Shown piece by piece: positions 5,120 through 63,971 of a stretch of DNA of 64,000 bases (within the stretch, counting starts at the first letter, position 1; every line of letters begins with the position of its first letter). The notes beneath the pieces are model-generated. The model did not search any database, was not told the DNA's origin, and saw only the letters and a program-made list of their open reading frames with translations. The stretch covers positions 5,872 through 69,871 of the forward strand of contig DAZE01000020.1 in the NCBI GenBank assembly GCA_002507175.1, read 5' to 3'. The stretch comes from Euryarchaeota archaeon UBA558. Lineage in GTDB: Archaea > Thermoplasmatota > Poseidoniia > Poseidoniales > Thalassarchaeaceae. The position numbers and the translations under genes are program-made.

Positions 5120-5127
5120 ATGCGGGG

Positions 5128-18823: not shown

Positions 18824-18899
18824 TGGCGCCCCGACCGGGATTTGAACCCGGGTCGCAGCCTCGACAGGGCTGCATGATAGGCCACTACACCATCGGGGC
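18824..18899 (-). tRNA. tRNA-Asp (GUC), CCA encoded
   Basis: Hand-folded. Acceptor GCCCCGA/TCGGGGC, anticodon stem CAGCC/GGCTG, loop CUGUCGA, T-arm CCGGG-TTCAAAT-CCCGG, discriminator G followed by CCA. 76 nt. Confidence 0.9.
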
Positions 18900-21075: not shown

Positions 21076-21153
21076 TGGCGGGCGCGGCAGGATTCGAACC
21101 CGCGGTCCCCGGCTTAGGAGGCCGGTGCATTATCCAGGCTATGCTACACGCCC
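21076..21153 (-). tRNA. tRNA-Arg (CCU), CCA encoded
   Basis: Hand-folded. Acceptor GGGCGTG/CGCGCCC, D-arm GCAT/ATGC, anticodon stem CCGGC/GCCGG, loop CUCCUAA, T-arm GCGGG-TTCGAAT-CCTGC. 78 nt. Confidence 0.9.
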
Positions 21154-38985: not shown

Positions 38986-39915
38986 ATGATGTCAGATTAC
39001 TTAGTTGAAGACATAGTGAAATGTGATGAATGCAGCAGTAGAAACTTAACTCGTGATGAGACGCGTGGAGAAGTTGTCTGCGACGATTGCGGTTTGGTTC
39101 TGGAAGACAAGGTAATCGACCAAGGTGCAGAATGGCGTGTTTTCAGTCCCGAGCAAGGAGATCAAAGGGCTAGGACCGGAGCACCAATGACGGTCATGTT
39201 GCATGACAAGGGACTATCCACTGACATAGATTGGCAGAACAAAGACTACTCTGGTAAGACAATCTCCAGCAGATACAGATCCCAGTTCTACCGCATGAGA
39301 AAGTGGCAGAAGAGATCCAGGGTCTCGAATGCCACAGAGAGAAACCTCGCGATGGCACTTGCTGAGTTGGATAGGATGGCCAGTCGATTGGACTTACCAA
39401 AAACAATCCGAGAAACTGCTGCTGTGAACTACAAGAAAGCCGTAGAGAAGAGGCTAATTCGAGGCCGTTCGATTGAGGGTGTTGCGGCAGCCTCTCTCTA
39501 TGCAGCATGCCGTCAATGTAACAATCCGCGGACCCTAGACGAAATAGGCGAGGCTAGTAGGACTGGCAGAAAAGAGATCGGACGGACTTACAGGTTCATG
39601 GTCCGAGAACTAAAAATGAAGATTCCTCCTACCAAGCCGGAAGACTACATCCCGAGATTCTGCTCCGGATTGGACTTGGACGCAGAAGTACAATCGAAAG
39701 CGTATGAACTCATCCAAAAAGCGCAAGAGAAAGAACTCACAAGCGGTCGGGGACCGACCGGCATTGCCGCATCGATAATTTACATCTCAAGCGTTTTATG
39801 TGGAAAGAGAAGGACACAGAGAGAGGTCGCTGAGGTAGCTGGGGTCACTGAGGTGACAATTAGAAACCGATACAAGGAGCTCATCCAAAACCTAAACATC
39901 GAATTAGAGATATGA
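38986..39915 (+). CDS. tfb: Transcription initiation factor IIB (TFB)
   Basis: N-terminal zinc ribbon CDECSS...[13 protein letters not shown]-finger/linker region and two cyclin folds ([33 protein letters not shown]). The track ORF starts at TTG 38977. ATG 38986 or 38989 is more likely. Confidence 0.95.
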
Positions 39916-41177
39916 GTGCCGGTGCCAGAATGCGCCTGAGAGACCCAGAGAATGTAATCTATGAGGAAGTAGGAAAGTCAATTGAGGCATCGATAATCCT
40001 TGCATGGTCGACATTTAATATTCCTGATCCCATCTATGAGTTACCTGAATTTCCGGCAATCCGTCCTAATGGGCCCCTAGCCCTGACGCAACAGGCACTC
40101 GGACTCCATTCTGCGGACAAAACGGGATTCAGGTTGAGACTTGAAGAAAGCGTCAGGAACCACTATCGACCCGTGCCCGGCTATTTTGATGAAGAGGAGA
40201 GGCGTACTAATTGGATGGCAAACAATGTAGGTCTACTAACTGATGATGTCTGCACCAAAACAGCATGTGTTTGGTTGGAACAGGCATTGGACGAGGAACA
40301 CCCAGATACAGACAGGTGGTACCTTGGCTATTCCCTGCTTGCAGGTAGGGTATTGAGCGGTTCCGAGTCTGCGTCATTGAGCCAATCAATACCAATCATG
40401 CTCGTTTTCGGCGGTCTTGATAGAGACTACTCGTCAGATGCACCTCATCCATCGGGAGTCAATGCTCTAAATTGCCTTCTCGATGCATCAGAGCAATTTA
40501 GTGACTCACCCTCCTTAGGATCTTGGATTTCCATACTTTCAATGCATCGATCTACATCTAGGATGTTAAGCATATCAGACCGCGCCGCGAGTCGTATAAT
40601 TCGGGAACAAAAAAGGATACCCAGCGGATGCATGGAGGCCTTGATCAATCTGATTTCTCATGACTTAGAGTCTGCTGAGAATGGGCTAAATCGTGTGGTT
40701 CTAGAGGGTAGTGGCTCAGCACGGATGATATTGGCAGGTAATCTCGACTCAATTGCTGGCAGAGATAGGAAACTCGCGTTAGATCTGTACGATGAGCTGT
40801 CTCAGAATTCTGATACTGGTGTCTTACTTGTTCTTTCATCATCGCTTTATTCTCTGTGCTATGACGATCCCGTGGCATTTCGGGTTAGGGCAATGAGACT
40901 GATCGAAACGGAGGATGATAAGGTAATCAGGAGACTGATTGAGTCGGGCTTTAGAGGATATCTCGATAGGGACCCCCAAGATAAATCATCATTGTTGGTG
41001 ATGGCTTGGAAGTATGGTGGCTCTCTATCCAAATCACGATTGAAAGGATTGATTTTCCAACAGAAGCAATCATCGGAGCAAAGCTTTCTCAAGACACTGT
41101 CTGGAATTCAGAAGTTCTCGGAGACTGAGGCTCTTGGCCTGCTTGAGTACATAGAGGGGCGCGAAGCCCCCCGATGA
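39912..41177 (+). CDS. Hypothetical protein translationally coupled to tfb
   Basis: 421-aa ORF whose ATG overlaps the tfb stop (ATGA). Mostly helical-looking sequence. No family recognised. Confidence 0.6.
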
Positions 41178-46818: not shown

Positions 46819-47688
46819 TCAAGCCATGGCTGCGGTAGCCTTCTTGGCTCCCATCCATGCTACTACACCGAAACCGATCTTGTTGATCATGTCAGCGATG
46901 TTGTATAGAACGCCCATTAGCTCCTGGTTGCCGTCTAGTAGATTGGCCTCAGGGCTGTACAAGTAGCCGATTGGGTAGATGACCCACCCTACGACTATGA
47001 ACATCCTTAGTGCGTTAAGGCTCCACTCTAGTTCGGCCTTCACCTTGCTGTTGTCGATACCCTTTGGCTCCATCATTCCGAATGGATCTCCGACTGCAAC
47101 AATGATCATTGCCCAGCCCACACCGCTCAATATCAAGCAGATTAGACCAGCGGAGTCACCGAATGTGCCATCCATGAGGCCTGTCTCGCCGGCGAATCCC
47201 CAGCCAATCATCCAAACTGCACCGAAGAAACACACGTTTGCGAATCCTCCGATTCCTGGGATCTTAGCGTCGGTGATAGCATCCTTCCCCACCAAGCTTG
47301 GGAACTTGAGAGCCATCAGCGGGACTGTGATGAGCCAGTCCATGTATCTGTAGTGGACGCTAACTATTCCATCCTCGACATAGGCGCCACGCATGTAGTA
47401 GTAGTGGAACGCTGCGATACCCACAATTAGTGCGGAAATCGTCATTGTTGTCCTGTACTCTTCAGCAACGCTGTTTCGCTCCATGACGAAGAAGATGAAC
47501 GCCGCTCCCATCGAAATGTACCCGACGAAGAAGAGGAAGAAGGTCAATAGAGCCATTCCCTCGTAGTCGTTTGGGTTTGCGTATTCCGATGCGGATGCAG
47601 TGGACAGTCCCAGTACTCCCAGCGTCATCAGGGCGAGTATTGGGGCACTCATTCTCAGGCCATTTTTGTAGGATGGATTAAGATCCAT
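46819..47688 (-). CDS. Proteorhodopsin-family microbial rhodopsin (DTK motif)
   Basis: Helix C RYMDWLITVPLMALKF, FHYYYMRG (PR-type His), helix G YNIADMINKIGFG with the Schiff-base Lys, and seven hydrophobic helices. Confidence 0.95.
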   Translation of the reverse strand: MDLNPSYKNGLRMSAPILALMTLGVLGLSTASASEYANPNDYEGMALLTFFLFFVGYISMGAAFIFFVMERNSVAEEYRTTMTISALIVGIAAFHYYYMRGAYVEDGIVSVHYRYMDWLITVPLMALKFPSLVGKDAITDAKIPGIGGFANVCFFGAVWMIGWGFAGETGLMDGTFGDSAGLICLILSGVGWAMIIVAVGDPFGMMEPKGIDNSKVKAELEWSLNALRMFIVVGWVIYPIGYLYSPEANLLDGNQELMGVLYNIADMINKIGFGVVAWMGAKKATAAMA

Positions 47689-47717: not shown

Positions 47718-47763
47718 TACCTGTCACTAGTCTAATTTAAACAATACGCTTCATAGGCCCTTT

Positions 47764-48444
47764 TTGCCTCGCTCGGCCATGGACAACCCAAGGGAACTAC
47801 TCCTGTCACTTTCTGATGCTGCCGCTGGAACTGACAATCCACTTTCTTGGTTTGAAGACCTTTATTCCAGAGCAAATAGGGATGATAGCTGGATTCCATG
47901 GTCTGATGGAAATCCCAATCCACTGTTGGTTGACTGGGTGATCGGGCAACCTGCGGGGAAAGCATTAGTTGTTGGCTCAGGACTAGGGGAAGATGCTGCG
48001 TTTCTAGAAAAAAAGGGATGGCAGGTAACGGCTTTCGACATCTCAGAAACTGCGATAAAATGGTCTTCGGACAGGTACAGTCACACGTCTGTTTCTTGGA
48101 TGGTAGCTGACCTGCTGAACCTTCCTCCAGAGTTGTGCGGTGACTTTGATTTGGTACTTGAAGTCCACATCTTACAGGCCATGCCCGTCGAACTAAGGAA
48201 AATAGCCTCACAAAAACTAGCCCCCCTGGTATCAGAAAACGGTTTCTTGGTCTGTATTGGACGCTATGCTACAGAGGACGATCTTACTATCGGGCCACCA
48301 TGGCCATTGAGCTATTCATTTATTGAGTCCATAGGCGCGAGTCTCGGTGAAATGAGCTTGAAGAAAATCAGGCTTGAGTCCGATGATAGTTCCGTTTCCC
48401 GCTACAGGGCTATTTGGAGACGAACGAAAATTAAGAACGATTGA
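47764..48444 (+). CDS. SAM-dependent methyltransferase (TPMT-like class I)
   Basis: ALVVGSGLGEDAAFL (motif I), VTAFDISETAI (acidic post-beta2) and a Trp-rich N-terminus as in thiopurine-MTase-like proteins. Alternative ATG at 47779. Confidence 0.75.
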   Translation: MPRSAMDNPRELLLSLSDAAAGTDNPLSWFEDLYSRANRDDSWIPWSDGNPNPLLVDWVIGQPAGKALVVGSGLGEDAAFLEKKGWQVTAFDISETAIKWSSDRYSHTSVSWMVADLLNLPPELCGDFDLVLEVHILQAMPVELRKIASQKLAPLVSENGFLVCIGRYATEDDLTIGPPWPLSYSFIESIGASLGEMSLKKIRLESDDSSVSRYRAIWRRTKIKND

Positions 48445-51400
48445 TGGACTTGGTAATCTGGTCGGCATTTTCGACCACCACAAATCCGTATTGTTCCTCG
48501 AGCGACCTTCTTATCATACGAAAATCTGAATCTCTCGTGGCCACCAATACAGAACCGACGTCCCGGAGCTTCGGCGATATGCTGCTCGAATAAGAAGCCA
48601 AACTAGCTGCATCGATGATTATCTGTCGATCCCCCTCCTCGGGGTAGATCGCCTTACCATTAATCACGGATCTTGATGGCTCGTCATCTCTTCTTTGCCG
48701 CTTGCTTTCATCTATTTTCGCAAAGATGTTTGAGTGGCTTTCGAGGAAGTTGCTAAGACTACTAATGATCGAATTGTCCTGCTCGAATGCAAGATTGACC
48801 CCACTGAATACCTCAATGACATAATTTCGAATTTCCTCTATCCCTGCATTTTCTATAGATGACCATAAGCCTTGGTCTTGGTATTCGCCGTGAAAAAGCC
48901 TCTTTGAGGTAGAGACGTCGCGTGTTCTATTGGAAAACTCCTTCATAACTGATTCTGGTAAGTAGGTTTTGATCGACCCTGCGTCTTTCTGTCTTCTCAA
49001 TGCCCATTGAAACGCTCTTTCCAGGGACCAATCCAGATTACCCAAACCATAAGGTGAACCCCGCTTGATCAATTCGTCTTTGAATGCGTCAATTAGCAAG
49101 TTGGTGTCTACAATGACAAGCGGTTTCAAACTTGTTATGTTGAAGGTTCTTCGGTCCTTGATAGGTATGGAAGACTCCAATGTGGTGAACATAGACCTTT
49201 GAGATCGCCGAAGTCTTCTGACTCCCTCCTCATCGAAACCCCCGTGATTAATTGCAGATTGGAACATTCTCAATCCAGAAAGTGGCTTTCTCTCAGCCTG
49301 TTCTTGTGCAATTAAGGATATTTCAAGCACGTCCCTCCCCTTCTGCAATTCCTCTTTTAGTCGCCTCTCAAGTCTATCTTCATTCCTGCGCCCTGGCCTA
49401 TCAAGCCTCTTTAATGCCGCCTTTACCCGGCCTTCGAAAGGATCACTCGGAAGTCCTAACTCATCTGGATAAGTCCTCAATCCGTTAATTTCCTGGGTCT
49501 TTTCTTCTTGATCCATATCCGAAGCATATCCCAACACTAGATTGGTCGCAACGTCGCTTCTGCCCTTGTCGTATTCACTACAAACTCTGAGAAATAATTG
49601 AAACCTTCGGGTTATCGCAGCCATCAATTCGGCATTTCGATCAATTAGGTCAACAGCCTGTTTCCATGCTTTGGCGTGTGCGAAGTGAATCAGTGCCATC
49701 CGCCGAAGTTGTGTAGTTCTCTCAAACCTTTGAGGCTCCAATCGCCTCGCAGCCTCTAGGAAACATCTTCCTGCATTCAGATGGTCTCCTTTACCGATCG
49801 AGATAGCGGCTCTCACTATCTGTGAACCAGATGAATCGGGAGCATGTTCTCGATACCATTCTTCCATTACGGGGAGGGCTATATGGTATTCTTCTATCAT
49901 TTCAGAGATTGATATCACCAATTGTATGGATAACCGTCCTTCATTGACAATCGAAACGAGAGTATCGGTCGCGGACCTCTTTTTGTCTTCGTCTTGCATT
50001 TGTAATTCAATTCTCGCTCTGTTCAGCCGTAGCAAGGTGATCAAGGAATCAAAAAGGGAAGACTCAATGTCACCTAGGCTTGAATTATCGGCAGCGGTAA
50101 TCAATTGCTCTATGCTATTTTCCCTCACTATGCCCGTTCCGTCCTCCAATAGGGCCCTTCTAGTTTGATTCAAGGCCTTGATTCCAGTCGTGCCAAGCCT
50201 ATCATGAAGGGCATTGAGGTCATGGGAGAATCCGTTTATTACAGCTAGCAATGCCACAGAAACCTCGGAAAGACAAGGATCCTCAATCCTTTCTAAGGCC
50301 TCTATCGATTTCTTTCTGAGGTCGACCATCCTGTCCATTTTGTTGATCCCGATTCTTGCCGACAAAAGGTGCCATACGAGCAACCCCCGCATTGGGTTTC
50401 TAACAACCGCTTCTCCGACAAGAATTTCGGATAGCAGCTTTATTTCATTTCCTTCGGTTGCTATGTCGGACAAGACTTCCAAATGGCCTGCTTTCAGACC
50501 TCTGGCAATGACCTCTTTAGCCACTATAGTCCTGATTTTTACCGATTTTGAACCATCATATAGTATCTCGATCAACCCTGATGAGTCTATTTTTTTTGCA
50601 CTTTCGGAAGCCATTTCCATCAAATCCTTATCATTCCCAGAAAATCTTCCCACTGCAATTAGCACGTCGATCGGCCACATTGGACGGCCAAGAATGACTT
50701 CTCGAGCCCCATCAAGTCGATTTCCGTCAATCAGTTTCGATGCAATCATGAAACTCAACTTAGCCGGCCAAGCCGAACCGTGACTGTCCAACAAGTCCCC
50801 ACCTCCCGTAAGTGCATCTAGGTCTAGATCTAAATCTGGGAGACTCACGGCCCGCCAGGCCTCAATTATCACAGCGTAGGATAGCCTACTCTCAGGCTCT
50901 TTTTTGATCCACGAGGCCACGTCTTCTTCACTTTTGGAATGTCGGAACGAGTTTAGAGTCAGATACAGTGTTGCTATCTTCTTGAGATCCGGGTCGCTAG
51001 AAGCAGTTCTGAATAACGCTTCGGCGTCCTCGCCAATCGATGCCATCATTATGCCGACAAAGAGGGATCCTACACCCGTATCCGTACCAAAATCTCCAAT
51101 TTGCTTCTTGACCCTGCGCGAGTCCACTTTCGTTGAATACTCACGCCTCAACATGAGAAGTGATTTTCTCTGTTTCTGGGATAGCTTCATTGGAGGATCG
51201 ATTGATAGCCAATCATGCAATGCGGAATGGTCGATTGGATCAAAATTGGCCTTTTCCAACCATGTTTCGATATTCGACTCCGCATTTGAGACTTCCAGTA
51301 CCGGGAACCTACTCAATTCAGCGAAGATCGGAGCCTCTCTGGCCAACCTCTCCCAAGCTGGATGAACACCCTCATCGCACCTCTTTCTGACATCAGAGGC

Positions 51401-51739
51401 GTCTCTTGTGTCTTTCATTACATCGGATTGTAATAATATGTATCTGCAGAGACGAAAAGCAGGGTTGTCTTCTTCCTCGTCTCCAATAATCGCTTCCCTT
51501 GGATCTGAGGTCGATCGGCGAACCCTTCTGCCGGCACGTCGAGAGGATTTCTTGGATTCAGATCCATTATCGTCTTGACGCTCAGGACTGGTTTTCGCCG
51601 CAGCGATCCTCACTAGAGCCCTCCACGATTTCGGCAACTCCTCATATCCAACCGTACGAGAAACCTTCCTCAATCGCGCTCTCTCATCATCACCTGCAGA
51701 GGACAGTGCCTCCAGGCATTCAAGGAGTTGAGATTCCAT
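48431..51739 (-). CDS. Large helical-repeat protein with a C-terminal PIN-like nuclease domain
   Basis: The last 231 aa (48434..49126) carry the four PIN acidic positions in order: LVIVDTNLLID, PESVMKEF, IIIDAASLA, VATRDSDF. The preceding roughly 870 aa are alpha-helical-looking with no recognised motif. Confidence 0.75.
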   Translation of the reverse strand: MESQLLECLEALSSAGDDERARLRKVSRTVGYEELPKSWRALVRIAAAKTSPERQDDNGSESKKSSRRAGRRVRRSTSDPREAIIGDEEEDNPAFRLCRYILLQSDVMKDTRDASDVRKRCDEGVHPAWERLAREAPIFAELSRFPVLEVSNAESNIETWLEKANFDPIDHSALHDWLSIDPPMKLSQKQRKSLLMLRREYSTKVDSRRVKKQIGDFGTDTGVGSLFVGIMMASIGEDAEALFRTASSDPDLKKIATLYLTLNSFRHSKSEEDVASWIKKEPESRLSYAVIIEAWRAVSLPDLDLDLDALTGGGDLLDSHGSAWPAKLSFMIASKLIDGNRLDGAREVILGRPMWPIDVLIAVGRFSGNDKDLMEMASESAKKIDSSGLIEILYDGSKSVKIRTIVAKEVIARGLKAGHLEVLSDIATEGNEIKLLSEILVGEAVVRNPMRGLLVWHLLSARIGINKMDRMVDLRKKSIEALERIEDPCLSEVSVALLAVINGFSHDLNALHDRLGTTGIKALNQTRRALLEDGTGIVRENSIEQLITAADNSSLGDIESSLFDSLITLLRLNRARIELQMQDEDKKRSATDTLVSIVNEGRLSIQLVISISEMIEEYHIALPVMEEWYREHAPDSSGSQIVRAAISIGKGDHLNAGRCFLEAARRLEPQRFERTTQLRRMALIHFAHAKAWKQAVDLIDRNAELMAAITRRFQLFLRVCSEYDKGRSDVATNLVLGYASDMDQEEKTQEINGLRTYPDELGLPSDPFEGRVKAALKRLDRPGRRNEDRLERRLKEELQKGRDVLEISLIAQEQAERKPLSGLRMFQSAINHGGFDEEGVRRLRRSQRSMFTTLESSIPIKDRRTFNITSLKPLVIVDTNLLIDAFKDELIKRGSPYGLGNLDWSLERAFQWALRRQKDAGSIKTYLPESVMKEFSNRTRDVSTSKRLFHGEYQDQGLWSSIENAGIEEIRNYVIEVFSGVNLAFEQDNSIISSLSNFLESHSNIFAKIDESKRQRRDDEPSRSVINGKAIYPEEGDRQIIIDAASLASYSSSISPKLRDVGSVLVATRDSDFRMIRRSLEEQYGFVVVENADQITKSINRS

Positions 51740-51776: not shown

Positions 51777-52778
51777 CTACATCAACACATCGTCGTCATC
51801 GACAATCCTGGCATTCCACATCTTGAGCCATTCGCTAATGTTTTGCTCGATGTCATGTTGTTCAATTCGCCTCTCAACCGGCAGACCGTTTTCTAGGGGC
51901 TTAATTCTACAGCCACAGGCATCTCGATGTCCACCCCCATCTACATCAAATCTTGTGGCCAATTTCGTGAGGTCGAATAGGCCACCATTCTTATGAAGAA
52001 ACGAGTTTGTGTAAAATGAGGCCGAGACGGGATAATCCAGACCGTTGTCGAAGGAACCATCTAATGAGCCATGTATGATCATGCATGCATCACAATCATC
52101 ACCAGCAAACGCAGTGATTGCGTAGCCGTTTGATCTCATTCCAAGGTCATTCATCTTCACTATTGCCATTCGGTCGATGATCTCAACTCTACCCTCTATC
52201 TCCCTCGCGAGGATCTCATTTTCTGTTTTCCTTGTGGATATCGCATCTGAAACAAGCACATCGCTAACGATGTCAACAATACTGTATCCCTCAGTAAAAA
52301 GCTCCAGGACTCTCAAGGCCACACCCTCTGAGACACCCAAACAACGGCCTATCCAAACCATCGGTTCATCAGACAGATATTCGTTTCTTGTGATATCACC
52401 GCTGTCCAGTTTATCCGTCCAATACAATGCGCTTTCTAGATCACTCAGATCTATTCTATCTTTGAATAAATTAGCCGCAACCCTTGCCGCAGATGGTGAG
52501 GACCCCCAGATTCTATTAGCAGGCCATTCATTTTCCGAAGGCTTATTCGATAGGTGATGATCAATTGAAAGCCCACAACTTGGGTGATAAGGAAGATCAC
52601 AAATAGCAGTTGATGAGTCTATCCAATAGTCGAGCATTCCGTCTTTTAGTGCACCGGGATGTCCAAACTTAACCTTTGCATCTGGAAATGCCCTTAGGAG
52701 GATCGCTCCGCACAAAACTCCGTCGAGATCACCATCTGTGAGGATTTTCTCCACCTTGAGTTCTGATAACCAGCTCAT
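51777..52778 (-). CDS. DHH/DHHA1 family phosphoesterase (nanoRNase/pAp-phosphatase-like)
   Basis: TDGDLDG (motif I), ICDL, SIDHH (DHH motif) and DVDGGGH (DHHA1 GGGH). 333 aa. Confidence 0.8.
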   Translation of the reverse strand: MSWLSELKVEKILTDGDLDGVLCGAILLRAFPDAKVKFGHPGALKDGMLDYWIDSSTAICDLPYHPSCGLSIDHHLSNKPSENEWPANRIWGSSPSAARVAANLFKDRIDLSDLESALYWTDKLDSGDITRNEYLSDEPMVWIGRCLGVSEGVALRVLELFTEGYSIVDIVSDVLVSDAISTRKTENEILAREIEGRVEIIDRMAIVKMNDLGMRSNGYAITAFAGDDCDACMIIHGSLDGSFDNGLDYPVSASFYTNSFLHKNGGLFDLTKLATRFDVDGGGHRDACGCRIKPLENGLPVERRIEQHDIEQNISEWLKMWNARIVDDDDVLM

Positions 52779-53917: not shown

Positions 53918-54646
53918 TCACATATCATCAGTCGGTTTGGACCATGAGGAATTTTTCAAACTATGAAGAGCATTATCAACAGCCTCGTTCCATGCTGAAT
54001 CAACAGCACCCCATCCCCCGAGCTCGTTCAGCTTGTCCTCATTCTGATCCGCGAGATCGGTCCGACCGAGATGTCTGTAGATTTTTGTGATTGCGGCATA
54101 ACTCATCGCTCCAAGCCAATCTTCCTCTGCGTCCCAAGAATTTTCAAAGTACGCCAATGCGCCAGAAGGACCCTCTAGAAGCCCCCTTTGGATCTGTCTT
54201 AGCCCAGCTTTGGACCACGCTATACCCGGCACCCCGATTATTAGACCCTTGAAAATGAGATAGATTTCCATTAGAATCAAAACCGAAGCCAGTATAAACG
54301 AAGAGAGATGTTCTTGCATACCCCCATTGTCCCAATAACCTACCATGAGCGAAATACTACCCACAGTCAAAAGGCAGCCGCCAAATGGACCCACAATGAA
54401 ATCTTTTGAGGTTCTAGACATATCCCATGATCCGCGGAGTGTTCCATACGCCCCGAGCACAAGGGCGATTATCGCGGGCACCTCTGGACTTGTATCCCTG
54501 GGCCCCTGCTCAGAAATTATCAAGAAGGCACCAGAAATCAATACAAAGTAAGAAAACCGTCTGGAAATCTCGGGAAACGGCTGGTAACCGGACAGGTAAA
54601 AACAAGCACCTCCCAACGCGATCAAAAAGGCTATCCATGCGATCAT
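53918..54646 (-). CDS. Hypothetical polytopic membrane protein
   Basis: 242 aa with about 6 hydrophobic helices. The start overlaps the upstream ORF stop. Confidence 0.55.
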   Translation of the reverse strand: MIAWIAFLIALGGACFYLSGYQPFPEISRRFSYFVLISGAFLIISEQGPRDTSPEVPAIIALVLGAYGTLRGSWDMSRTSKDFIVGPFGGCLLTVGSISLMVGYWDNGGMQEHLSSFILASVLILMEIYLIFKGLIIGVPGIAWSKAGLRQIQRGLLEGPSGALAYFENSWDAEEDWLGAMSYAAITKIYRHLGRTDLADQNEDKLNELGGWGAVDSAWNEAVDNALHSLKNSSWSKPTDDM

Positions 54647-54969
54647 ACACTATCCCCTTTCCATCCCGGCATCCAGAAACGATCGTTATCCAGCCATTCT
54701 GACCACTCTCTGTCAGTCGCCCTCAACAACCTCAGAGCCCGCCTGTCCAGGCCTTGTTTGAGAGCATCATCTACCTCCTCCCTTTTCCATGAATCCTCCC
54801 ATTCTATCTGGAGCTCCCTCACAAACCGCTGCCCTTCAGGCCGATTGTCAAAGTGCCGCTCACAGATTTCCCTAAGCTCCTGCAGCCAAACTCTGGTACC
54901 AAGCATCTGGGGGTCATTATCCATGTGGCCAGTTCCCTTTTTGCGAAACAGCCAATCCCAGAACATCAC
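54643..54969 (-). CDS. Hypothetical Trp/charged-rich small protein
   Basis: 108-aa ORF with a 4-nt overlap with the downstream membrane protein gene. Confidence 0.5.
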   Translation of the reverse strand: MMFWDWLFRKKGTGHMDNDPQMLGTRVWLQELREICERHFDNRPEGQRFVRELQIEWEDSWKREEVDDALKQGLDRRALRLLRATDREWSEWLDNDRFWMPGWKGDSV

Positions 54970-55982: not shown

Positions 55983-58900
55983 GTGGGTATGATAGCAGAT
56001 TTTGGTAGAAGGAGAGAAGTGAGTAGATCCCTGTTCCTTGTTGTTCTGATGGTAGCAAGTTTACAGACGCCGACCTTGGCCGCAACAACCACAGGTACCT
56101 CTGATAATCACAGTCCATACGAGTCTCCGCCCCAGATCCAAATTCAATCTGAGGATATCGACACTACGACAAATTATGCCCCCAATTTTGCGATGCTTCC
56201 TGACCATCCAGCCTTCAAAGACGCATCATGGTCTGACCCAGGCTTACTTTACGGGAGAATAACTGACATCTCCTTCTTGGACGAGGGATACAGATTCATG
56301 GTTGAAGAGACCGAAACGGAGGACCATGATAATGACGGAATCAACGACCTTGATGATTTGGATGATGACAACGATGGGATTTCAGACCTCATAGAGCGGT
56401 TTGATGGATGCTTCGGAACAGACCCATATGACCATGACAATGACGGTTTGAAAGATGAGTTTGACTTTGATGACGATAATGACGGTATTTTGGAGGGGCC
56501 TATCGACTATTCACAGGGCACAGATCCTTGGAATGTCAGCACTGATCGATACGTGGACCCCCAGACTACCCATCCCTGGACGGGCCTCCCAGTGGGAACT
56601 GGATACTTGGTAGATCAGGATCCATACGACCACGACAACGACGGGGTCCCTGACGAGGATATAGATGGGTCAGGAAAAGGGTCCTATGACGAAGATGATG
56701 ATAATGACGCCAGAATTGACCAATTCGTCTGGCCCTGTGACTTTGATGGCGATGGCCTTCAGGACTACTGGGATGCAGATGACGATAATGATGGCGTGAT
56801 CGATATCTGGGACACACATCCATGGAACAGTTCTGAAACTCGGAACATAACTGCTACCGCGCAGAACTGGAGCGCCGCTGAATCATGGGCATCTAGCAAA
56901 ACTCACCAGGTATCCATAACCGAAAACGGGTACTCAACACCTAATTTGGCCATAGAGATCGGAGACTCGGTTAGGTGGACAAATGACGATATCGAGAACC
57001 GTACTGTGACGGCAGCAGACGGCTCATTCGACAGCGGCATAATCCCCCCCGGCGGATTCTTCGTCCACTTGTTTGAAAATGAGGGCCAGACAAGATATTC
57101 CGAAACAGCAGGAACAGGTGTTGGAGATGGAACAATTACTACAAATGCTGCAACTGGCTTGCCCTTCCCAGACGCATTCAACCTCGACTTCGATACATAT
57201 GGTAAAGAGAAGCTCGACTTCGCCTTCAAGGAGCAAAATCTATGGCATCCTCGGAATCCTGCATTCGATCAGATTGTTGACGGAGATCTGGATGGCGACG
57301 GATTACCCAATTTCATCGATCCCGATAATGACAATGACGGAACACCTGATTCCGCGGACACTGATGACGATAACGATGGCTTGCTGGACATGTGGGACAT
57401 AGACGATGACAACGATGGCATCCCAGATAACTGTCTGAATGTCCTTGGCCCACAAGATAACATGGAGGGCTTCTCAGAATACTTTGGCCAAACTCCTGGA
57501 GTTGATTGTGAGATCGACTATGACAGGGACGCCGACGACGATGCCTACAGAGCGATCGATTCGGACTATGATTTGGTTTGGGATTGGAAGGACACAGATC
57601 TTGGCGCAGCAGATCCTGCAGATAACCTACTCGGAAATCCATCCTTAGATCCGAACGACCTGCCTTATGATTTGGACAATGATGGAATTTTGAATCAGGA
57701 CGATCCATATCCCATGGTGCATTCCGATGTAATTGATACCTGGAACTGCGAGTCGCTGCAGAACCCGAATCCAGTGAACCCAGACCCTAGGTGCTTAACA
57801 GAGCGAAAATCGTACACAGGAAACAACGATTGGGACGGCGACGGCTTCTCTAACTGGGAGGACGTCGATGATGACAATGACGGCGTTCTGGACTGGCTGG
57901 ACATAGATGAGAACTGCGATCTTGATGACGATAACGATCTTCATCTCCTAAACGGTTCCAGATACCGGGACGATGGTCCCAACGCCATTGATACTGACAT
58001 TGATGGCGATGGCCTGTCAAATGATGAGGATTGGGATGATGACAATGACGGAATATCCGACCTGTACGACCCAGACGACGGGAATTGCGGTGTAGTGGAC
58101 ATTGATTCCACCGATCAATTTGACAACTCGTATTCTCACCAAGACGGCGACATCATAGACGGTAGCGCCGATAGTCAAATCTATGTCGGCACAGGGACAC
58201 TGCAATGGGATATGTTCTGGCACTTTAGCCCATTTTTCGTAGATCATGGATTCGTTCTTCCATACAATGGATACCAAGATGACTTCACATTTGGACCTCC
58301 TACGATCGTTTCCAATGGAAATGTCCCAGAGATGTATTGGCATGTCATGATGAAATGGAGCCCATGGAATGGCAACAACTACTTTGACCTCGATATGGAT
58401 GGAGACTCTTTGATCAATGGTATCGATGTTGACATAGACGCTGATGGCGTCCCAAATTGGTGGGACAGGGATGAGGGCTCCGACGGAAGACTGGATGTGA
58501 ACGATCCAGCATATGGTGGCTCATTGGATGACGGAGAATGCGACTTGTCCATGTCTTTCCTGTTGGGTCTGGACGACGATCAAATTAGCTGTGGCATAGC
58601 CTTGGCATGGCTCTATGGATTCCCACTCAGTCAGGCTAGATCCAGTAATGGTGTCCCATTCGTCCTACCATATTCCTCTAGGCCAGATCCACTCTACACT
58701 GATGGCCCATACAACGGAGAGAATTCTGCTGGTATTAATGACTTCACCTGTGAAACCAACTGCTTTCACTTCGATTTCCTCGGCCCTGCAGACGCAGGCC
58801 CTTCCGCTGCCGTGACATTTGATGACATGATCAACAACAGGGACCTGTGGACGGCCTACGTTGGAATTAATTTTGGCATGTTCCAATGGGTCTCCGACGG

Positions 58901-61900
58901 GAACGGGAACCTCTTCCCAGATGAATTCGCGGACCTGTTGAATAACAATGAAGATCCTGATGACGATTGTGGAGCCCCCGTCACAGGAACTCCAAATCCA
59001 TCATGCATGGTTAACGATACAGCCGATCTAGATGACGATTTCGACGGCGTTTTCGACCATTGGGACGTTGACGATGACAACAATGGCGTTTGGGATTTCT
59101 TCGAGGTTGACGTCAACGATGACTTGGATGATGATACCAACACGGAACCCCTGGGGAACTTTTTCACCGGATACAACTGCGATGATCAGGACGATGACGG
59201 TACGGATACAGATCCCGATGGGGATGGTTGGTACCAATCGGTTTGGGATCGAGGCAGATTAGGACAGGGATTGCTCTTCCCCCAATATTACGACGTCGAC
59301 AATGACAACGATGGCGTCCCGGACGGGGAGGACCCCGATGACGACAACAACGGAGTCTTGGACACCGACCAGGAATTGATTTGCTTCCAAGGGGAAGAAC
59401 AGAGCCCATGGGACCACGACAATGACGGTATTCCAGATTGGGCAGACACGGATTGGGATGGCGACGGCTTATCCAATACCATCGAGCTTGCTGGTGGGGG
59501 AGCCTCCCATCCAATCGCCCCATGGGACCACGACAACGATGGCCTTCGTGATGACATTGATCTCGATGATGATGAAGATGGCATGAACGATGAAGACGAG
59601 GTGATGCTTTGGCCAACGAGGTTCAACTCCAATTCAACAAATCCCTGGGATCATGATGATTACGGAACCGGGTCAGGAATTTATGATCCAACAAACGCAT
59701 CCACGGGTCCAGACGCTCAGGATGAAGATGACGACTCAGATGGCATACCAGATATCGATTGGGACCACTTGGAGGAGAACGAACTATGCACCGACTCAAG
59801 CGGAGCTCTATACCCTGCAAGTGATTGGGACAATGACAACGATTGCATATTAGATGCAGACGACAAACCACCCACCAGAATTACGCTCAATCCAATCCAA
59901 ACTGTCTGGTTAGACGCCCAATTCCCTGCAGTATTTACCGGTCGCGTGGATGTTCTCGATATGGAGACCGGAGCATTTGTTCCCGGAACAGACCTACCCG
60001 TTAGAATAGTGATTGAATACGCAAGGAACTCGACTGAGGCCCTACGAACAGTGGAGGTTCTTACGAACGAAATGGGGAATTTCACAGTAGGACAATACCT
60101 CTATCCAGAGGATATTGAAGTAGGTCCATCCTCTATGTACAACCTTCGTGCTGATGTGATAGAGATGTTTGCCCACGACGGGTCGTCTTCAACCCCCGTC
60201 CCCCTACAGGTCAGGGGAAACACGACCGTCGATTACGTATCCTGGACTTATTTCAGGAGTGACGAACAACCCCTCTTTGTGGATTTCAAGGTGCATTATG
60301 ACGCAGATTGGCAGAGGGGTATATTTGACAATAGAATAAAACACGCTCCAGTCTCATTCACAGTCGCCGGAGGTCCATTCGGAAACCGCACGGAACCTAC
60401 TATGTTTGATGGATACGGATTCGGATACAGGGCCGACTCAAACGGTTGGGTGTCCCTCACTTTCGTCCAACAACAGGGTGCTCAAGGTTTCTGGAAACAG
60501 GTTCGATGGAACTCCACCATGGACAACGGTGTGGGGCAACCCAGCGGCGGATACGAGGAAATTGTGTGGGACGACAACGCAAAGGAACATCAATACGTGT
60601 CAAGATACGAATATACGAACACATCTTTGCCAGTCGGAGATTATGAGTTCATAGGCTTCTCGAAACCAGATTTGGGAGCTGAGTGGCCCTTCCCATACCT
60701 CAACGGCAGCGAATCAGAGACATTCTACATACGCTCAATGCACAGAATGTACATCGAGGCCGTCATACACACGACCTCATTGAGACCCGTTTACTTCTGG
60801 GATGCCACCCAATTTATCGGATCGTCTTTCGGCGCATGGAGGGCTCTATTCCACGCTCCATCACTTCAAGCAGCAGACATATCCTTTGAGAATGCCAGCA
60901 TTGGCAAGCCATACCCCATCCTTTGGGATGGAACATCGGCAGGGCTTACTGGTGAGGCTGCTAAGCTGAGGCCCTTCCTTTCGGCCAATCTGACTCATTG
61001 GTCTATAGCAATGCAAAATGGAGGAGACTTCAACGCCCCACCATGTGGACCCGCAAACCCAGCGGATCCATTCAGTCAAACTCGTTGTGAGATTATGCCA
61101 GAATTATTTACTGGTGAGTCACTCAGGGTGGTAGGGGAAGTTTACAATCGAACCTTTGTACCATGGTCTAGCGACCCGATTGCCTTGCAGGTCGATCTCG
61201 ATCAAAACCTAATATTCTCTGGCGCCCAAGAAACTGGTTTCGCCAGGGTGCCAAACATGATTGATGGCAAAGCAAAGTTTGACTACAACTGGACATGGTA
61301 CTCACAGTATGCAGCGGGCACATACGGCATCAAGGCAGATTTCACGAACTCCAATTTCTACTTCACGGGCAATCAATCATCCGTTTTGTCCGCCACTGGA
61401 GCCTACGTCAACGTTTCAGTAATCGGAACGAGCCAATTTTTACCGATTGAGGACTCCCGTCTATATCGCGGAGTAAACAGAACCGTGGAAGTGAGGCTGG
61501 TGGATAACTCCCTGCAACCACTGAGGGAGGTCCCAGTCACATATTCGTGGAACGCAGACGGCACCAATGGACTGACATCAACCGACAAAAATGGAATATT
61601 CAGGGTCAATCTCTCAACCGGACAGAATCACCCTCTAGGTGCATTCACACTCAGCTATGAATACACAGGAGACGCTTTCCACCAATCCTCGACAGGTCAG
61701 ACGGAACTATGGGTCGTTTCTCGAACCTTCATCGACCTACAATCCAGCGTCTCTGGAGCATTAGTGAGCGGTCAAGACTGGTTCTTCACAGCCCAGGTGA
61801 CCGATGACAATCGAACTGCATTTACGAAGGACTCAGGACAGGCATTGGATGGGTGCGAGGAAAACGGAGGAAATATCACTTTGATTCTGGAAGGATTAGA

Positions 61901-63971
61901 CTTCGAGGACAGAGTTCACAGAAAAATCGTGGAGACTCTGTGCCCGAGTGCCGGTGCCATCACGCACCAACTTACCTTGGATCCCGAGATACTCACCTCT
62001 GATGCTGAATCATTCCTCCCAGATGGTTTTGGACCAGTAAATGTAATTCTCAGATTTAATGAAAACCTTCCCCACGAGGGATGCGGCCCACTAGGCCCCG
62101 ACGCCTTGGAGATCGCTGGAGCATGGGACGAATGTACTCTCGATATCTACAACGACCATTACAGGAGAGTACTTCAGTTCCAAGAAGAGGGATTCTATCT
62201 CCTCGGAGGGACATCGTTGAGTGTTGATGAGCAAACAGTCTACACTTCCGAGGCCGATCCCATAACAGGTGAATCTATTCAAAAGCCAATGTCTGTTACT
62301 GGTCAATTGGTAGATGAACTTGGTAGGAACCTAAGCTTCCGAAATGTGAAGGTGACCTATGAGATGCTGGGAAGTCAGCTCGGAATACGAACATGCCTTC
62401 CGGGTACCACCGATGCCAACGGATTCTTTGAGATACTATGCTCACTTGACGGCGTTCAAGCAGGTCAAGCAAAAGTACAGGTGATGTACAACTCATGGGA
62501 AAATGCAGATCGTTATCGATATCTGAATGCAACAAAAACCATGTTATTCCCAGTATACTCCAATTCTACATTGCAGATGATCGAAATCGGCCCATTCAGG
62601 AATGACGTCGACACGTACACGTTTGCAAATGGCAGCACATTCCCAGTTCTTTACCTAAAGGAATCGTTCCACCTCGATGCAAGACTTACCCAGGTGAATG
62701 GAAATCCAGTTGGTGGCAAGTGCCTGAACATCTATCTCGATCCCGAGACCAATACTAGACCTTTCGCAACAGCAAGGACAAACGACGGAACAGGCTCAGT
62801 TGAGTGGTTTTCAGGTGACAAGGAGGATAATCCAAGCCAAAGAGGAGTAGACCCAAGCGGCGACCAGCTCGAGGGCTTCAGAACCGTGAGAGTCGCCTAT
62901 GAACCCACAAGATCTGTCCCTGGGGGATGTGAGATAGAAAACAGCCCAGTGATTAATGGCTCTTTCGTGGACGTTGAAGTTCTAGTACAGAGCAGAGTCG
63001 ATATTCTACTGAGCCAGCAATGGGCACGCCCCGAGGGGTATCAAGTTGGTGAGATTGTCGAGGGTTCGGTCGCAATACTCCGAGATAGGATCGATTTGGC
63101 AGTGGAAGGGCAGACCGTCATATTCTCCCAGTACTACAACAACGGAACCGGTTGGGAGCTCTTCAAGGTCTATATCACTACCACTAACGAGCAGGGTACA
63201 GCCAATTTCAGTTTCGAATACACAGGCCGTGATCTCCCAGGGGAACAATCCGCCATCCTCGGAGGCCCTGAAGCAGTAAACGGGGAATGGAAAATAGAGG
63301 TAGAGTTCCAGGGTGATTATCGATTCGTAAGCTCGGAACTGAGCAACACTCCCAGGATAAAACTTGCAGATCCCGTCGACCCAGACCAACAGAGCTTCTT
63401 TACGGCCAGGGTCATGACAGTTTTGGCCCTCATCCTGGTCTCGACACTACTACTAGCTGCCTACATGTACAGGAATTACGTAGAAAGAAGGAGAATAGAG
63501 GTACTCAGGGGCATACTGACAGATTCGTTGTGGGCTTTGCAAGGACGAAATTCGTATATTGAGACCATTTTCAACTGCTATAAGGACTTAGTCAAGTTCT
63601 TCAGACAGAGAGGAGCAATGAAGAAAGTTTACGAAACCACTAGAGAATTCGAGTACGCAGTAGATAAGATGCTTGGCGGAATAGCGCCCCCGGAGGACCT
63701 ATCAGAATTCTTCAGCATATTTGAGGAAGCAAGATATTCAGATCATGAGATCGGAGCAGACCAGAGAGATAGAGCCATAGCGGCACTTCAAAACATCATC
63801 ACCCATCTATCAAAATCATTGGGAGAGAGCATGCTCAGCCGAATACGCTCCGAGGGCTTAGAGATGTATGGCGCATCGACCAAAGCTGGTACCTTTGTGG
63901 ACTCCGAAGGCCAGGTCAGAATTGCTGGAGAACAGGACGACTCAGACGAGAAGACGGGATTCAACATATGA
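55983..63971 (+). CDS. Giant Ca-binding surface protein: signal peptide, about 30 TSP3-like DxDxDG repeats, cupredoxin-like module, about 1100-aa beta-rich region, TM anchor, cytoplasmic DUF4129-like domain
   Basis: Signal LFLVVLMVASLQTPTLAA. Many DHDNDG/DDDNDG units. TM helix VMTVLALILVSTLLLAAYMY (63395..63470). C-terminal TREFEYAV...FEEARYSDHEI. GTG at 55983 or ATG at 55989. Confidence 0.9.
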   Translation: MGMIADFGRRREVSRSLFLVVLMVASLQTPTLAATTTGTSDNHSPYESPPQIQIQSEDIDTTTNYAPNFAMLPDHPAFKDASWSDPGLLYGRITDISFLDEGYRFMVEETETEDHDNDGINDLDDLDDDNDGISDLIERFDGCFGTDPYDHDNDGLKDEFDFDDDNDGILEGPIDYSQGTDPWNVSTDRYVDPQTTHPWTGLPVGTGYLVDQDPYDHDNDGVPDEDIDGSGKGSYDEDDDNDARIDQFVWPCDFDGDGLQDYWDADDDNDGVIDIWDTHPWNSSETRNITATAQNWSAAESWASSKTHQVSITENGYSTPNLAIEIGDSVRWTNDDIENRTVTAADGSFDSGIIPPGGFFVHLFENEGQTRYSETAGTGVGDGTITTNAATGLPFPDAFNLDFDTYGKEKLDFAFKEQNLWHPRNPAFDQIVDGDLDGDGLPNFIDPDNDNDGTPDSADTDDDNDGLLDMWDIDDDNDGIPDNCLNVLGPQDNMEGFSEYFGQTPGVDCEIDYDRDADDDAYRAIDSDYDLVWDWKDTDLGAADPADNLLGNPSLDPNDLPYDLDNDGILNQDDPYPMVHSDVIDTWNCESLQNPNPVNPDPRCLTERKSYTGNNDWDGDGFSNWEDVDDDNDGVLDWLDIDENCDLDDDNDLHLLNGSRYRDDGPNAIDTDIDGDGLSNDEDWDDDNDGISDLYDPDDGNCGVVDIDSTDQFDNSYSHQDGDIIDGSADSQIYVGTGTLQWDMFWHFSPFFVDHGFVLPYNGYQDDFTFGPPTIVSNGNVPEMYWHVMMKWSPWNGNNYFDLDMDGDSLINGIDVDIDADGVPNWWDRDEGSDGRLDVNDPAYGGSLDDGECDLSMSFLLGLDDDQISCGIALAWLYGFPLSQARSSNGVPFVLPYSSRPDPLYTDGPYNGENSAGINDFTCETNCFHFDFLGPADAGPSAAVTFDDMINNRDLWTAYVGINFGMFQWVSDGNGNLFPDEFADLLNNNEDPDDDCGAPVTGTPNPSCMVNDTADLDDDFDGVFDHWDVDDDNNGVWDFFEVDVNDDLDDDTNTEPLGNFFTGYNCDDQDDDGTDTDPDGDGWYQSVWDRGRLGQGLLFPQYYDVDNDNDGVPDGEDPDDDNNGVLDTDQELICFQGEEQSPWDHDNDGIPDWADTDWDGDGLSNTIELAGGGASHPIAPWDHDNDGLRDDIDLDDDEDGMNDEDEVMLWPTRFNSNSTNPWDHDDYGTGSGIYDPTNASTGPDAQDEDDDSDGIPDIDWDHLEENELCTDSSGALYPASDWDNDNDCILDADDKPPTRITLNPIQTVWLDAQFPAVFTGRVDVLDMETGAFVPGTDLPVRIVIEYARNSTEALRTVEVLTNEMGNFTVGQYLYPEDIEVGPSSMYNLRADVIEMFAHDGSSSTPVPLQVRGNTTVDYVSWTYFRSDEQPLFVDFKVHYDADWQRGIFDNRIKHAPVSFTVAGGPFGNRTEPTMFDGYGFGYRADSNGWVSLTFVQQQGAQGFWKQVRWNSTMDNGVGQPSGGYEEIVWDDNAKEHQYVSRYEYTNTSLPVGDYEFIGFSKPDLGAEWPFPYLNGSESETFYIRSMHRMYIEAVIHTTSLRPVYFWDATQFIGSSFGAWRALFHAPSLQAADISFENASIGKPYPILWDGTSAGLTGEAAKLRPFLSANLTHWSIAMQNGGDFNAPPCGPANPADPFSQTRCEIMPELFTGESLRVVGEVYNRTFVPWSSDPIALQVDLDQNLIFSGAQETGFARVPNMIDGKAKFDYNWTWYSQYAAGTYGIKADFTNSNFYFTGNQSSVLSATGAYVNVSVIGTSQFLPIEDSRLYRGVNRTVEVRLVDNSLQPLREVPVTYSWNADGTNGLTSTDKNGIFRVNLSTGQNHPLGAFTLSYEYTGDAFHQSSTGQTELWVVSRTFIDLQSSVSGALVSGQDWFFTAQVTDDNRTAFTKDSGQALDGCEENGGNITLILEGLDFEDRVHRKIVETLCPSAGAITHQLTLDPEILTSDAESFLPDGFGPVNVILRFNENLPHEGCGPLGPDALEIAGAWDECTLDIYNDHYRRVLQFQEEGFYLLGGTSLSVDEQTVYTSEADPITGESIQKPMSVTGQLVDELGRNLSFRNVKVTYEMLGSQLGIRTCLPGTTDANGFFEILCSLDGVQAGQAKVQVMYNSWENADRYRYLNATKTMLFPVYSNSTLQMIEIGPFRNDVDTYTFANGSTFPVLYLKESFHLDARLTQVNGNPVGGKCLNIYLDPETNTRPFATARTNDGTGSVEWFSGDKEDNPSQRGVDPSGDQLEGFRTVRVAYEPTRSVPGGCEIENSPVINGSFVDVEVLVQSRVDILLSQQWARPEGYQVGEIVEGSVAILRDRIDLAVEGQTVIFSQYYNNGTGWELFKVYITTTNEQGTANFSFEYTGRDLPGEQSAILGGPEAVNGEWKIEVEFQGDYRFVSSELSNTPRIKLADPVDPDQQSFFTARVMTVLALILVSTLLLAAYMYRNYVERRRIEVLRGILTDSLWALQGRNSYIETIFNCYKDLVKFFRQRGAMKKVYETTREFEYAVDKMLGGIAPPEDLSEFFSIFEEARYSDHEIGADQRDRAIAALQNIITHLSKSLGESMLSRIRSEGLEMYGASTKAGTFVDSEGQVRIAGEQDDSDEKTGFNI
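56322..59866 (+). repeat. Coding region rich in degenerate tandem thrombospondin-type-3-like repeats (D-x-D-x-D-G-x-x-D)
   Basis: By manual reading, about 30 copies of D[HDWNL]D[NG]DG-type loops. The recurring DNA core is gatgacgataatgacgg. The block is interrupted at 56904..57110 by a non-repeat module. Confidence 0.8.

Follow-up and report, generated by a model that had tools for sequence, protein, structure and literature searches.

A large Poseidoniales protein with a predicted VapC-type PIN domain at the end of a helical scaffold

The 64,000-nucleotide stretch of Euryarchaeota archaeon UBA558 analyzed here (contig DAZE01000020.1; the window) carries on its minus strand a complete gene for a 1102-residue protein (48431..51739, stop codon included). 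The protein consists of an N-terminal region of 155 residues, a long all-helical body, and a C-terminal domain that very probably has the PIN fold. Known members of the family are restricted to the Poseidoniales (Marine Group II archaea) and have this single architecture. We conclude that the protein is probably a lineage-specific housekeeping endonuclease in which a divergent VapC-type PIN domain is carried on a large helical platform. An earlier note on this DNA, made from the sequence alone, had described a helical scaffold joined to a C-terminal PIN domain with an insertion, an architecture that it could not place in a known family, and the core of that reading holds.

The open reading frame (ORF) is a genuine gene under purifying selection, and selection is strongest on the PIN-like domain. 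The ratio of nonsynonymous to synonymous substitution rates (dN/dS) is 0.14 against an orthologue that is 93% identical and 0.12 against one that is 88% identical. By region, dN/dS is 0.03–0.055 in the C-terminal domain, 0.14–0.16 in the helical body, and 0.2–0.33 in residues 1–155. An ATG start and full-length orthologues in at least 80 Poseidoniales genomes bear out the reading frame given in the note, and the GC content of the gene is level with that of its flanks. Every motif string quoted in the note was located in the translation: LVIVDTNLLID (residues 874–884), PESVMKEF (928–935), IIIDAASLA (1040–1048), VATRDSDF (1066–1073), and the basic patch KKSSRRAGRRVRRSTS. Public collections hold an identical 1102-residue sequence under the sole name 'hypothetical protein', and a relative encoded on fosmid HF70_19B12 has the automatic UniRef label 'PIN domain-containing protein'.

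The C-terminal PIN-like domain

Residues 861–1102 (48434..49159, minus strand) are assigned to the VapC-type PIN-like nucleases based on the order of the secondary structure elements in the model, the acidic residues at the strand ends, Foldseek lists topped by PIN-like proteins, and sub-threshold matches to Pfam PIN, to which the low dN/dS is added. Among the domain residues that never vary in an alignment of 28 family members with identity down to 23% are D878-T879-N880; P1033, E1034, and D1037; and A1067, D1070, D1072, and F1073. E934 is kept in at least 90% of the members, and one (P0028) has Gln. The putative catalytic acids, all encoded on the minus strand, were each placed by the alignment, the model, and a codon check. 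The first is D878 (49106..49108), at the end of strand 1 in an invariant D-T-N. E934 (48938..48940) is the putative catalytic Glu and is carried by the helix that follows strand 2, as in VapC-type domains. D1037 (48629..48631) is the third; it belongs to the invariant motif I-Y-P-E-x-G-D and lies where the helix that follows strand 3 begins. D1070-S-D1072 (48524..48532) supplies the fourth (and fifth) acids in A-T-R-D-S-D-F just after strand 4. A conserved Asp at the end of strand 2 was found neither in the 28-member alignment nor in the model. The earlier note had recognized four ordered acidic PIN positions. Its D878, E934, and D1070 are conserved, but its third acid, D1043 in IIIDAASLA, is variable and is replaced in the set by the invariant D1037 six residues upstream. 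The note had staked its reading on conservation of the acids in homologues and on a PIN-like fold prediction. Four of the acids (D878, D1037, D1070, and D1072) never vary, E934 varies once, and the AlphaFold2 model with its top Foldseek matches is consistent with a PIN-like fold; neither of the refuting outcomes named in the note was observed.

The domain model was computed with AlphaFold2 for residues 836–1102 from a 20-sequence alignment and has a pLDDT of 84.3 and a pTM of 0.84. It starts with a strand (872–877) followed by D878, two helices, and a second strand (924–926). The next helix (929–938) carries E934, and it is followed by five helices (approximately 942–1016) and a short hairpin that ends in I-Y-P. 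Helix 1035–1049 starts at D1037, strand 1061–1067 leads into T-R-D1070-S-D1072, and strand 1087–1089 and a last helix complete the domain. The five strand segments alternate with helices in the PIN order, and the acids are located at the ends of core strands, with D878 after strand 1, D1037 after strand 3, and D1070/D1072 after strand 4. The protein stops about 13 residues past strand 5, and the model has no H3TH-like element after the domain. PIN-like superfamily members are Rossmann-like α/β/α proteins with a central sheet of five parallel strands, and the acids at the C-terminal ends of the core strands make up the metal-binding site (PMC5499597). In the VapC-like group, an Asp at the end of strand 2 is replaced by a catalytic Glu on the helical element that follows, and the H3TH is missing (PMC5499597).

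The comparison with VapC-type PIN domains (PF01850; PMC5499597) is close in layout. The strand and helix order is common to both, as are hhhhDTNhhI after strand 1, the Glu on the helix after strand 2, the Asp that starts the helix after strand 3, and T-x-D-x-D-F after strand 4. In contrast, the present domain has about 240 residues compared to about 130, all three acid intervals are longer (56/103/33 versus 35/56/18–21 in plasmid VapC), and there is a helical insert of about 75 residues. It also scores below the Pfam threshold, is fused to an 860-residue scaffold, and is encoded on the chromosome in a gene order that is kept in the Poseidoniales. The helical insertion (residues 942–1020; 48680..48916, minus strand) lies between the Glu helix and strand 3 in the model and is the least conserved part of the domain, with a mean identity to distant members of 0.22. 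Its size is about 75 residues if it is counted as the extra helices at 942–1020. The net insertion is about 50 residues because the E934–D1037 interval is 103 here and 56 in plasmid VapC. The note had put about 100 inserted residues between the second and third acids; 103 is the whole spacing, and its figure is too high.

The sequence and structure searches for a PIN domain are consistent, and none is significant. Scanning the full protein and its C-terminal 239 residues against Pfam, NCBIfam, and PADLOC yielded nothing usable. Among the sub-threshold families, Pfam PIN (PF01850; gathering threshold 23.6 bits) was the commonest; it matched 8 of the 20 C-terminal domains scanned, at best with E = 0.023. 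Residues 949–1020 were removed in silico from ten members, and 6 of the 10 insert-deleted constructs matched Pfam PIN, 4 of them over nearly the whole profile (positions 1–116/118 of 120). The insert-deleted construct of the window protein itself had no Pfam PIN match. Foldseek comparison of the domain model to the PDB placed VapC11 at the top (E = 0.15, probability 0.87, target-normalized TM 0.59) and HARP RNase P, Exo1, an NYN protein, and T5 exonuclease at lower ranks, and all of these are PIN-like folds. The top two matches in BFVD were viral PIN-like/PIN domain-containing proteins (E = 0.018 and 0.053, probability 0.95 and 0.90). A Toprim reading of the DxD motif was rejected; Toprim proteins appeared in the BFVD search only at probability 0.01.

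Several results count against the assignment. The Pfam scan of the window protein gave no matches even at E ≤ 1. The best insert-deleted construct reached 20.5 bits (E = 7.7e-4, profile positions 1–118 of 120), which is below the 23.6-bit cut-off. Nothing in the PDB search with Foldseek fell under E = 1e-3, and the best E values in the PDB and BFVD are the 0.15 and 0.018 given above. When the full-length, C-terminal, and insert-deleted alignments were used as profiles against PDB sequences, the matches were only noise such as FIH and included no PIN protein. The hhalign comparison to Shigella VapC aligned only the 12-residue DTN motif, and the comparison to an 8-sequence plasmid VapC profile aligned only 14 residues at a probability of 5–8%; both profiles are shallow (Neff 2.2–2.9), and the comparison is not taken as a negative result. 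Finally, the PIN topology was judged by the order of the elements along the sequence.

The position of the insert raises the idea that the protein is a FEN/Exo1-like structure-specific DNA nuclease of replication or repair, with the helical insert as its arch. The insert lies between strands 2 and 3, which is the site of the FEN-type helical arch (PMC5499597). Exo1 and the T5 5'-exonuclease are among the weak Foldseek matches, and an RNase H gene is found two genes upstream in one clade. However, the Exo1 and T5 matches have probabilities of 0.09–0.21 and a TM of about 0.2, well below the values for VapC11. The second acid is a Glu carried by the helix that follows strand 2, as in VapC; a conserved Asp at the end of strand 2 is missing, and nothing like an H3TH follows the domain. 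A Glu placed as in VapC, together with the missing H3TH, makes a FEN-like nuclease improbable.

Activity of the PIN domain is predicted only, and the scaffold accounts for 78% of the protein and resembles the assembly platforms Ski3 and Ctr9. Both points would fit a non-catalytic protein that organizes a complex and whose PIN-like domain is a pseudo-nuclease binding module, as in SMG5. Pseudo-PIN domains such as SMG5 have lost the catalytic acids. In contrast, the acids of the present family are retained (E934 nearly always) in members with as little as 23% identity, and no part of the protein is under stronger constraint than the PIN core. Acid conservation and selection on the PIN domain make this explanation very unlikely.

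The helical scaffold and the N-terminal region

Residues 156–860 (49160..51274, minus strand) are predicted by AlphaFold2 to be an all-α, TPR-like solenoid of about 45 helices of 9–20 residues each. The full-length model (pLDDT 71, pTM 0.36) is all helical to residue 865 and has no β structure before residue 871, in agreement with the note's description of the upstream 870 or so residues as helical. Model confidence is high for residues 160–450 (pLDDT 80–92) and moderate for 510–860. The best conserved blocks of the scaffold are residues 691–720 and 751–780. Foldseek with the full-length model retrieved the TPR scaffolds Ctr9 and Ski3 (E of about 1e-4, TM of about 0.15), which are generic solenoid matches only. 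None of the Pfam or NCBIfam TPR models matched the 1102-residue protein at threshold. Matches to hidden Markov models (HMMs) at noise level were to TIGR02917 (E = 0.0086; 14 bits against a cut-off of 312), TPR_16 (E = 0.36), and HrpB1_HrpK (E of at least 0.016), and the weak TPR-type matches fall in residues 621–718. As modeled, residues 156–860 appear to resemble TPR solenoids in a generic way only. The 'TPR/HEAT-like' label of the note is supported as far as this general solenoid likeness goes, but not by any TPR motif at threshold.

The N-terminal region (residues 1–155; 51275..51739, minus strand) is modeled at low confidence as short helices, and the pLDDT is below 50 for most of residues 1–153. 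It contains the Arg-rich basic patch KKSSRRAGRRVRRSTS (residues 63–78; 51506..51553, minus strand), whose core, R67-R68-x-G70, is invariant in a 10-sequence alignment with identities down to 26%. A second motif in the region, C121-x4-H126-P-x-W129, is near-invariant. Because residues 1–155 are poorly modeled yet conserved, these data suggest a flexible interaction region, and the Arg-rich patch is a putative binding site for RNA or a protein partner.

Two groups of eukaryotic and RNase P proteins invite comparison with this arrangement. SMG6, SMG5, and Est1 are eukaryotic nonsense-mediated decay and telomerase factors in which a long N-terminal TPR-like/14-3-3-like helical region is followed by a C-terminal PIN domain. 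The architectural logic appears to be alike. Pfam EST1, EST1_DNA_bind, and PIN_4 gave no match, and SMG6 is not in the Foldseek lists; an independent origin of the SMG6-like architecture is the likelier explanation. PRORP also combines a helical-repeat RNA-binding region (PPR) with a C-terminal PIN-like (NYN) metallonuclease. HARP (7e8j, 8ssf) is among the best fold matches and has a helical excursion from its PIN core. These matches are weak, however (E 0.2–0.7, target-normalized TM 0.4), the present protein has neither PPR motifs nor a zinc-binding linker, and its acids are VapC-type and not NYN-type.

Family, inheritance, and gene neighborhood

A word-indexed search returned only 11 clusters, every one of them full length at about 1100 residues. 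A profile of 28 sequences returned the same 11 proteins, and the use of the distant member P0012 as the query widened the diversity. An exhaustive HMM search of 1.84 billion representative sequences gave 142 matches, of which about 30 are full length (1091–1169 residues) and the remainder are fragments. No second architecture was found among the 142 matches, and alignments of the full-length members run from the first residue to the last. Short tail matches (P0125–P0148) were considered as stand-alone PIN proteins and rejected as chimeric or frameshifted pieces of the same family. Genomes were scanned with a 10-sequence alignment using one genome per GTDB species; relatives were found in 134 stretches, and 80 loci were kept. 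All 80 belong to Poseidoniales/Marine Group II and cover Poseidoniaceae-type as well as Thalassarchaeaceae genomes (MGIIa and MGIIb), and each has a single PIN gene match. Identity to the window protein is 48–94% in the closer clade and 30–36% in the Thalassarchaeaceae. This pattern follows the family split and is consistent with vertical descent of the PIN gene.

The family was not found described in the literature searched. Matelska et al. (2017; PMC5499597) list PIN_18 and PIN_27 as tiny euryarchaeal VapC-like clusters without a known function, and these may overlap with the present family. We regard the family as a PIN subfamily missed by current HMMs, with an architecture that is undescribed for archaea.

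The window is a chromosomal stretch of housekeeping genes, which include those for TFB, topoisomerase VI B, a thermosome subunit, PurL, aconitase, a class II ribonucleotide reductase (RNR), isocitrate dehydrogenase (IDH), and a rhodopsin. The PIN gene belongs to a block of about 12 genes that keeps its order in related genomes. The first part of the block consists of PanD, an RlmH-like SPOUT methyltransferase, two unknown genes, cobalamin adenosyltransferase, NUDIX, and DHH, and the second part of the PIN gene, a TPMT-like methyltransferase, rhodopsin, IDH, OsmC, and RNR. No antitoxin-like, defense, or mobile-element gene was found beside the PIN gene in the related loci, and PADLOC gave no match for the PIN protein or the two neighbors that were scanned. 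The organization is also not that of VapBC, because the loci have no small upstream antitoxin gene, the upstream gene encodes a 333-residue DHH/DHHA1 protein, and the PIN protein has 1102 residues compared to about 130.

These loci bear on the possibility that the protein is a toxin or defense effector, in which a VapC-like PIN domain is restrained by a helical sensor and freed on infection or stress. The PIN motifs are VapC-type, and the protein evolves faster than its surroundings, with 30–36% identity between MGIIa and MGIIb compared to 50–80% for flanking genes. TPRs with a fast-evolving C-terminal PIN domain are a described conflict-system core that occurs sporadically in archaea (PMC8195603). 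In that TPR-GreA/B-C-PIN core, the GreA/B-C domain lies between the TPRs and the PIN domain, and the N-terminal effectors are variable (Kaur, Iyer, Burroughs, Aravind 2021, PMC8195603). The present family resembles the core (PMC8195603) in having a TPR-like region before a divergent, earlier undetected C-terminal PIN domain and in its fast evolution, but it is inherited vertically in a kept gene order across the Poseidoniales, whereas the conflict core is sporadic. Membership in the TPR-GreA/B-C-PIN group was ruled out because there is no β-rich GreA/B-C domain, no conflict-system Pfam family is matched even at E ≤ 10, and the N terminus is constant, with no variable effector in members that align end to end. 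The gene is present once per locus at the same position in a conserved order across both Poseidoniales families, its identity pattern follows the family split, its GC content is like that of its surroundings, and it has neither a small antitoxin-like gene upstream nor a PADLOC match. Gene order and vertical inheritance thus leave a toxin or defense effector with little likelihood, and the 'defense effector' option of the earlier note is disfavored.

The upstream neighbor of the PIN gene (51777..52778, minus strand) encodes a 333-residue protein that, by its motifs and profile match, is a DHH/DHHA1 phosphoesterase of the nanoRNase-like (PggH/NrnA-like) type. It contains the motifs DGDLDG, IDHH, and GGGH, and D15/D17/D19, D61, D73-H74-H75, and G281-G-G-H284 are invariant in 10 orthologues. 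A profile of the orthologues matches PDB entry 7d62 (PggH, a pGpG-specific NrnA-like enzyme) at E = 1.6e-19 over residues 9–307. The protein alone has no Pfam or NCBIfam assignment, with Pfam DHH and DHHA1 only sub-threshold. It is 48–62% identical across the Poseidoniales, the three closest genomes aside, and the PIN gene is less conserved. The two genes are on the same strand and are separated by 37 bp in the window, and a DHH gene for a protein of about 330 residues lies directly upstream of the PIN gene on the same strand in 59 of 82 related loci. A NUDIX hydrolase gene adjoins the DHH gene on the other strand. The PIN, nanoRNase-like DHH, and NUDIX genes could be an RNA-turnover cluster. 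An obligate DHH–PIN operon was rejected based on the exceptions described in the next section.

One clade, of which locus L053 is the type, has different neighbors that include RNase H, NTPase, and fatty-acid oxidation genes. In L053, the RNase H gene (4873..5424, plus strand; Pfam E = 1.8e-19) is two genes upstream of the PIN gene on the same strand, and an opposite-strand gene for a DUF4079 membrane protein lies between them. On the downstream side in the window, the gene for a TPMT-like S-adenosylmethionine-dependent methyltransferase (47764..48444, plus strand; Pfam E = 3.5e-11) runs toward the PIN gene, and its last 14 nucleotides overlap the 3' end of that gene. Related contigs call this gene, which encloses the 159-residue ORF at 47732..48211 (minus strand), and that ORF is therefore probably spurious. 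The rhodopsin locus (46819..47688, minus strand) is occupied by two very different rhodopsin types at the matching positions of loci L001–L008, and these do not track the flanking genes. The PIN gene of L003 is 88% identical to that of the window and its rhodopsin 34%, and the corresponding values for L004 are 70% and 96%. These sequence comparisons suggest that rhodopsin was replaced at a fixed locus.

The window contains two giant ORFs. One (55983..63971, plus strand) runs off the window end at more than 2662 residues; it has weak Big_1 and DUF4129 matches, nothing was matched in its first 1000 residues, and it is conserved beside the PIN gene block in related loci. The other (26784..31949, plus strand; 1721 residues) has CARDB and NPCBM-associated domains. 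Both look like large surface or adhesion proteins. Three further ORFs (53918..54646, minus strand; 54643..54969, minus strand; and 39912..41177, plus strand) encode 242, 108, and 421 residues and have homologues at the same positions in related loci. No Pfam match was found for any of the three, and the 242-residue protein also had no PADLOC match and NCBIfam noise only (E = 0.079). The genes for the 242- and 108-residue proteins overlap by 4 nucleotides and lie between the cobalamin adenosyltransferase and RlmH-like methyltransferase genes. The only Rfam/ARAGORN matches in the 64 kb are tRNA-Asp(GTC) at 18824..18899 and tRNA-Arg(CCT) at 21076..21153, both on the minus strand.

Proposed function and significance

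If the protein is a housekeeping endonuclease, D878, E934, D1037, and D1070 (together with D1072) would coordinate Mg2+ or Mn2+ for the hydrolysis of phosphodiester bonds. VapC-type enzymes are RNases. Because VapC-type PIN domains cut RNA, the likely substrate is RNA rather than DNA, and it would most probably be single-stranded. The solenoid of about 700 residues and the N-terminal 155 residues with their Arg-rich patch would select a substrate RNA, ribonucleoprotein (RNP), or partner and bring it to the active site. Substrate access may be shaped by the helical insert, which lies next to that site, and the adjacent DHH enzyme may cooperate in RNA turnover.

Parts of this proposal have evidence on the other side. 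The full-length model has a pTM of 0.36, and its arrangement of scaffold and nuclease is therefore of low confidence. The adjacency of the DHH gene is unspecific because gene order is kept throughout the block of about 12 genes. The DHH–PIN pairing is also broken in L084 by an opposite-strand gene, and in L083 and the L053-type clade the PIN gene has no DHH gene next to it.

A more specialized version of an RNA-cutting enzyme would be an SMG6- or PRORP/HARP-like processing or surveillance nuclease, docked by its scaffold and invented independently by the Poseidoniales. The solenoid would dock on a structured RNA or RNP, such as pre-tRNA, pre-rRNA, or the ribosome, and the PIN domain would cut it site-specifically. 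The products could be cleared by the adjacent nanoRNase-like DHH enzyme, and the nuclease might complement or replace a canonical archaeal RNase in the lineage. We consider this version rather unlikely and favor the more general assignment as a lineage-specific housekeeping endonuclease.

In the surface ocean, Marine Group II archaea rank with the most abundant planktonic archaea; they are uncultured, and their biology is therefore read almost entirely from genomes. The present gene is large and constrained across both Poseidoniales families, and its predicted catalytic domain escapes the domain libraries. If the protein is a scaffold-guided RNA endonuclease, archaeal RNA metabolism would gain a component specific to this lineage, and the protein would be a further independent case of a repeat scaffold joined to a PIN domain, beside SMG6 and PRORP. 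The corrected set of acids, with D1037 in place of D1043, changes the targets for mutagenesis. PIN fusions are common and the domain types are familiar, but the size, conservation, lineage restriction, and lack of characterization of this family make it a reasonable experimental target.

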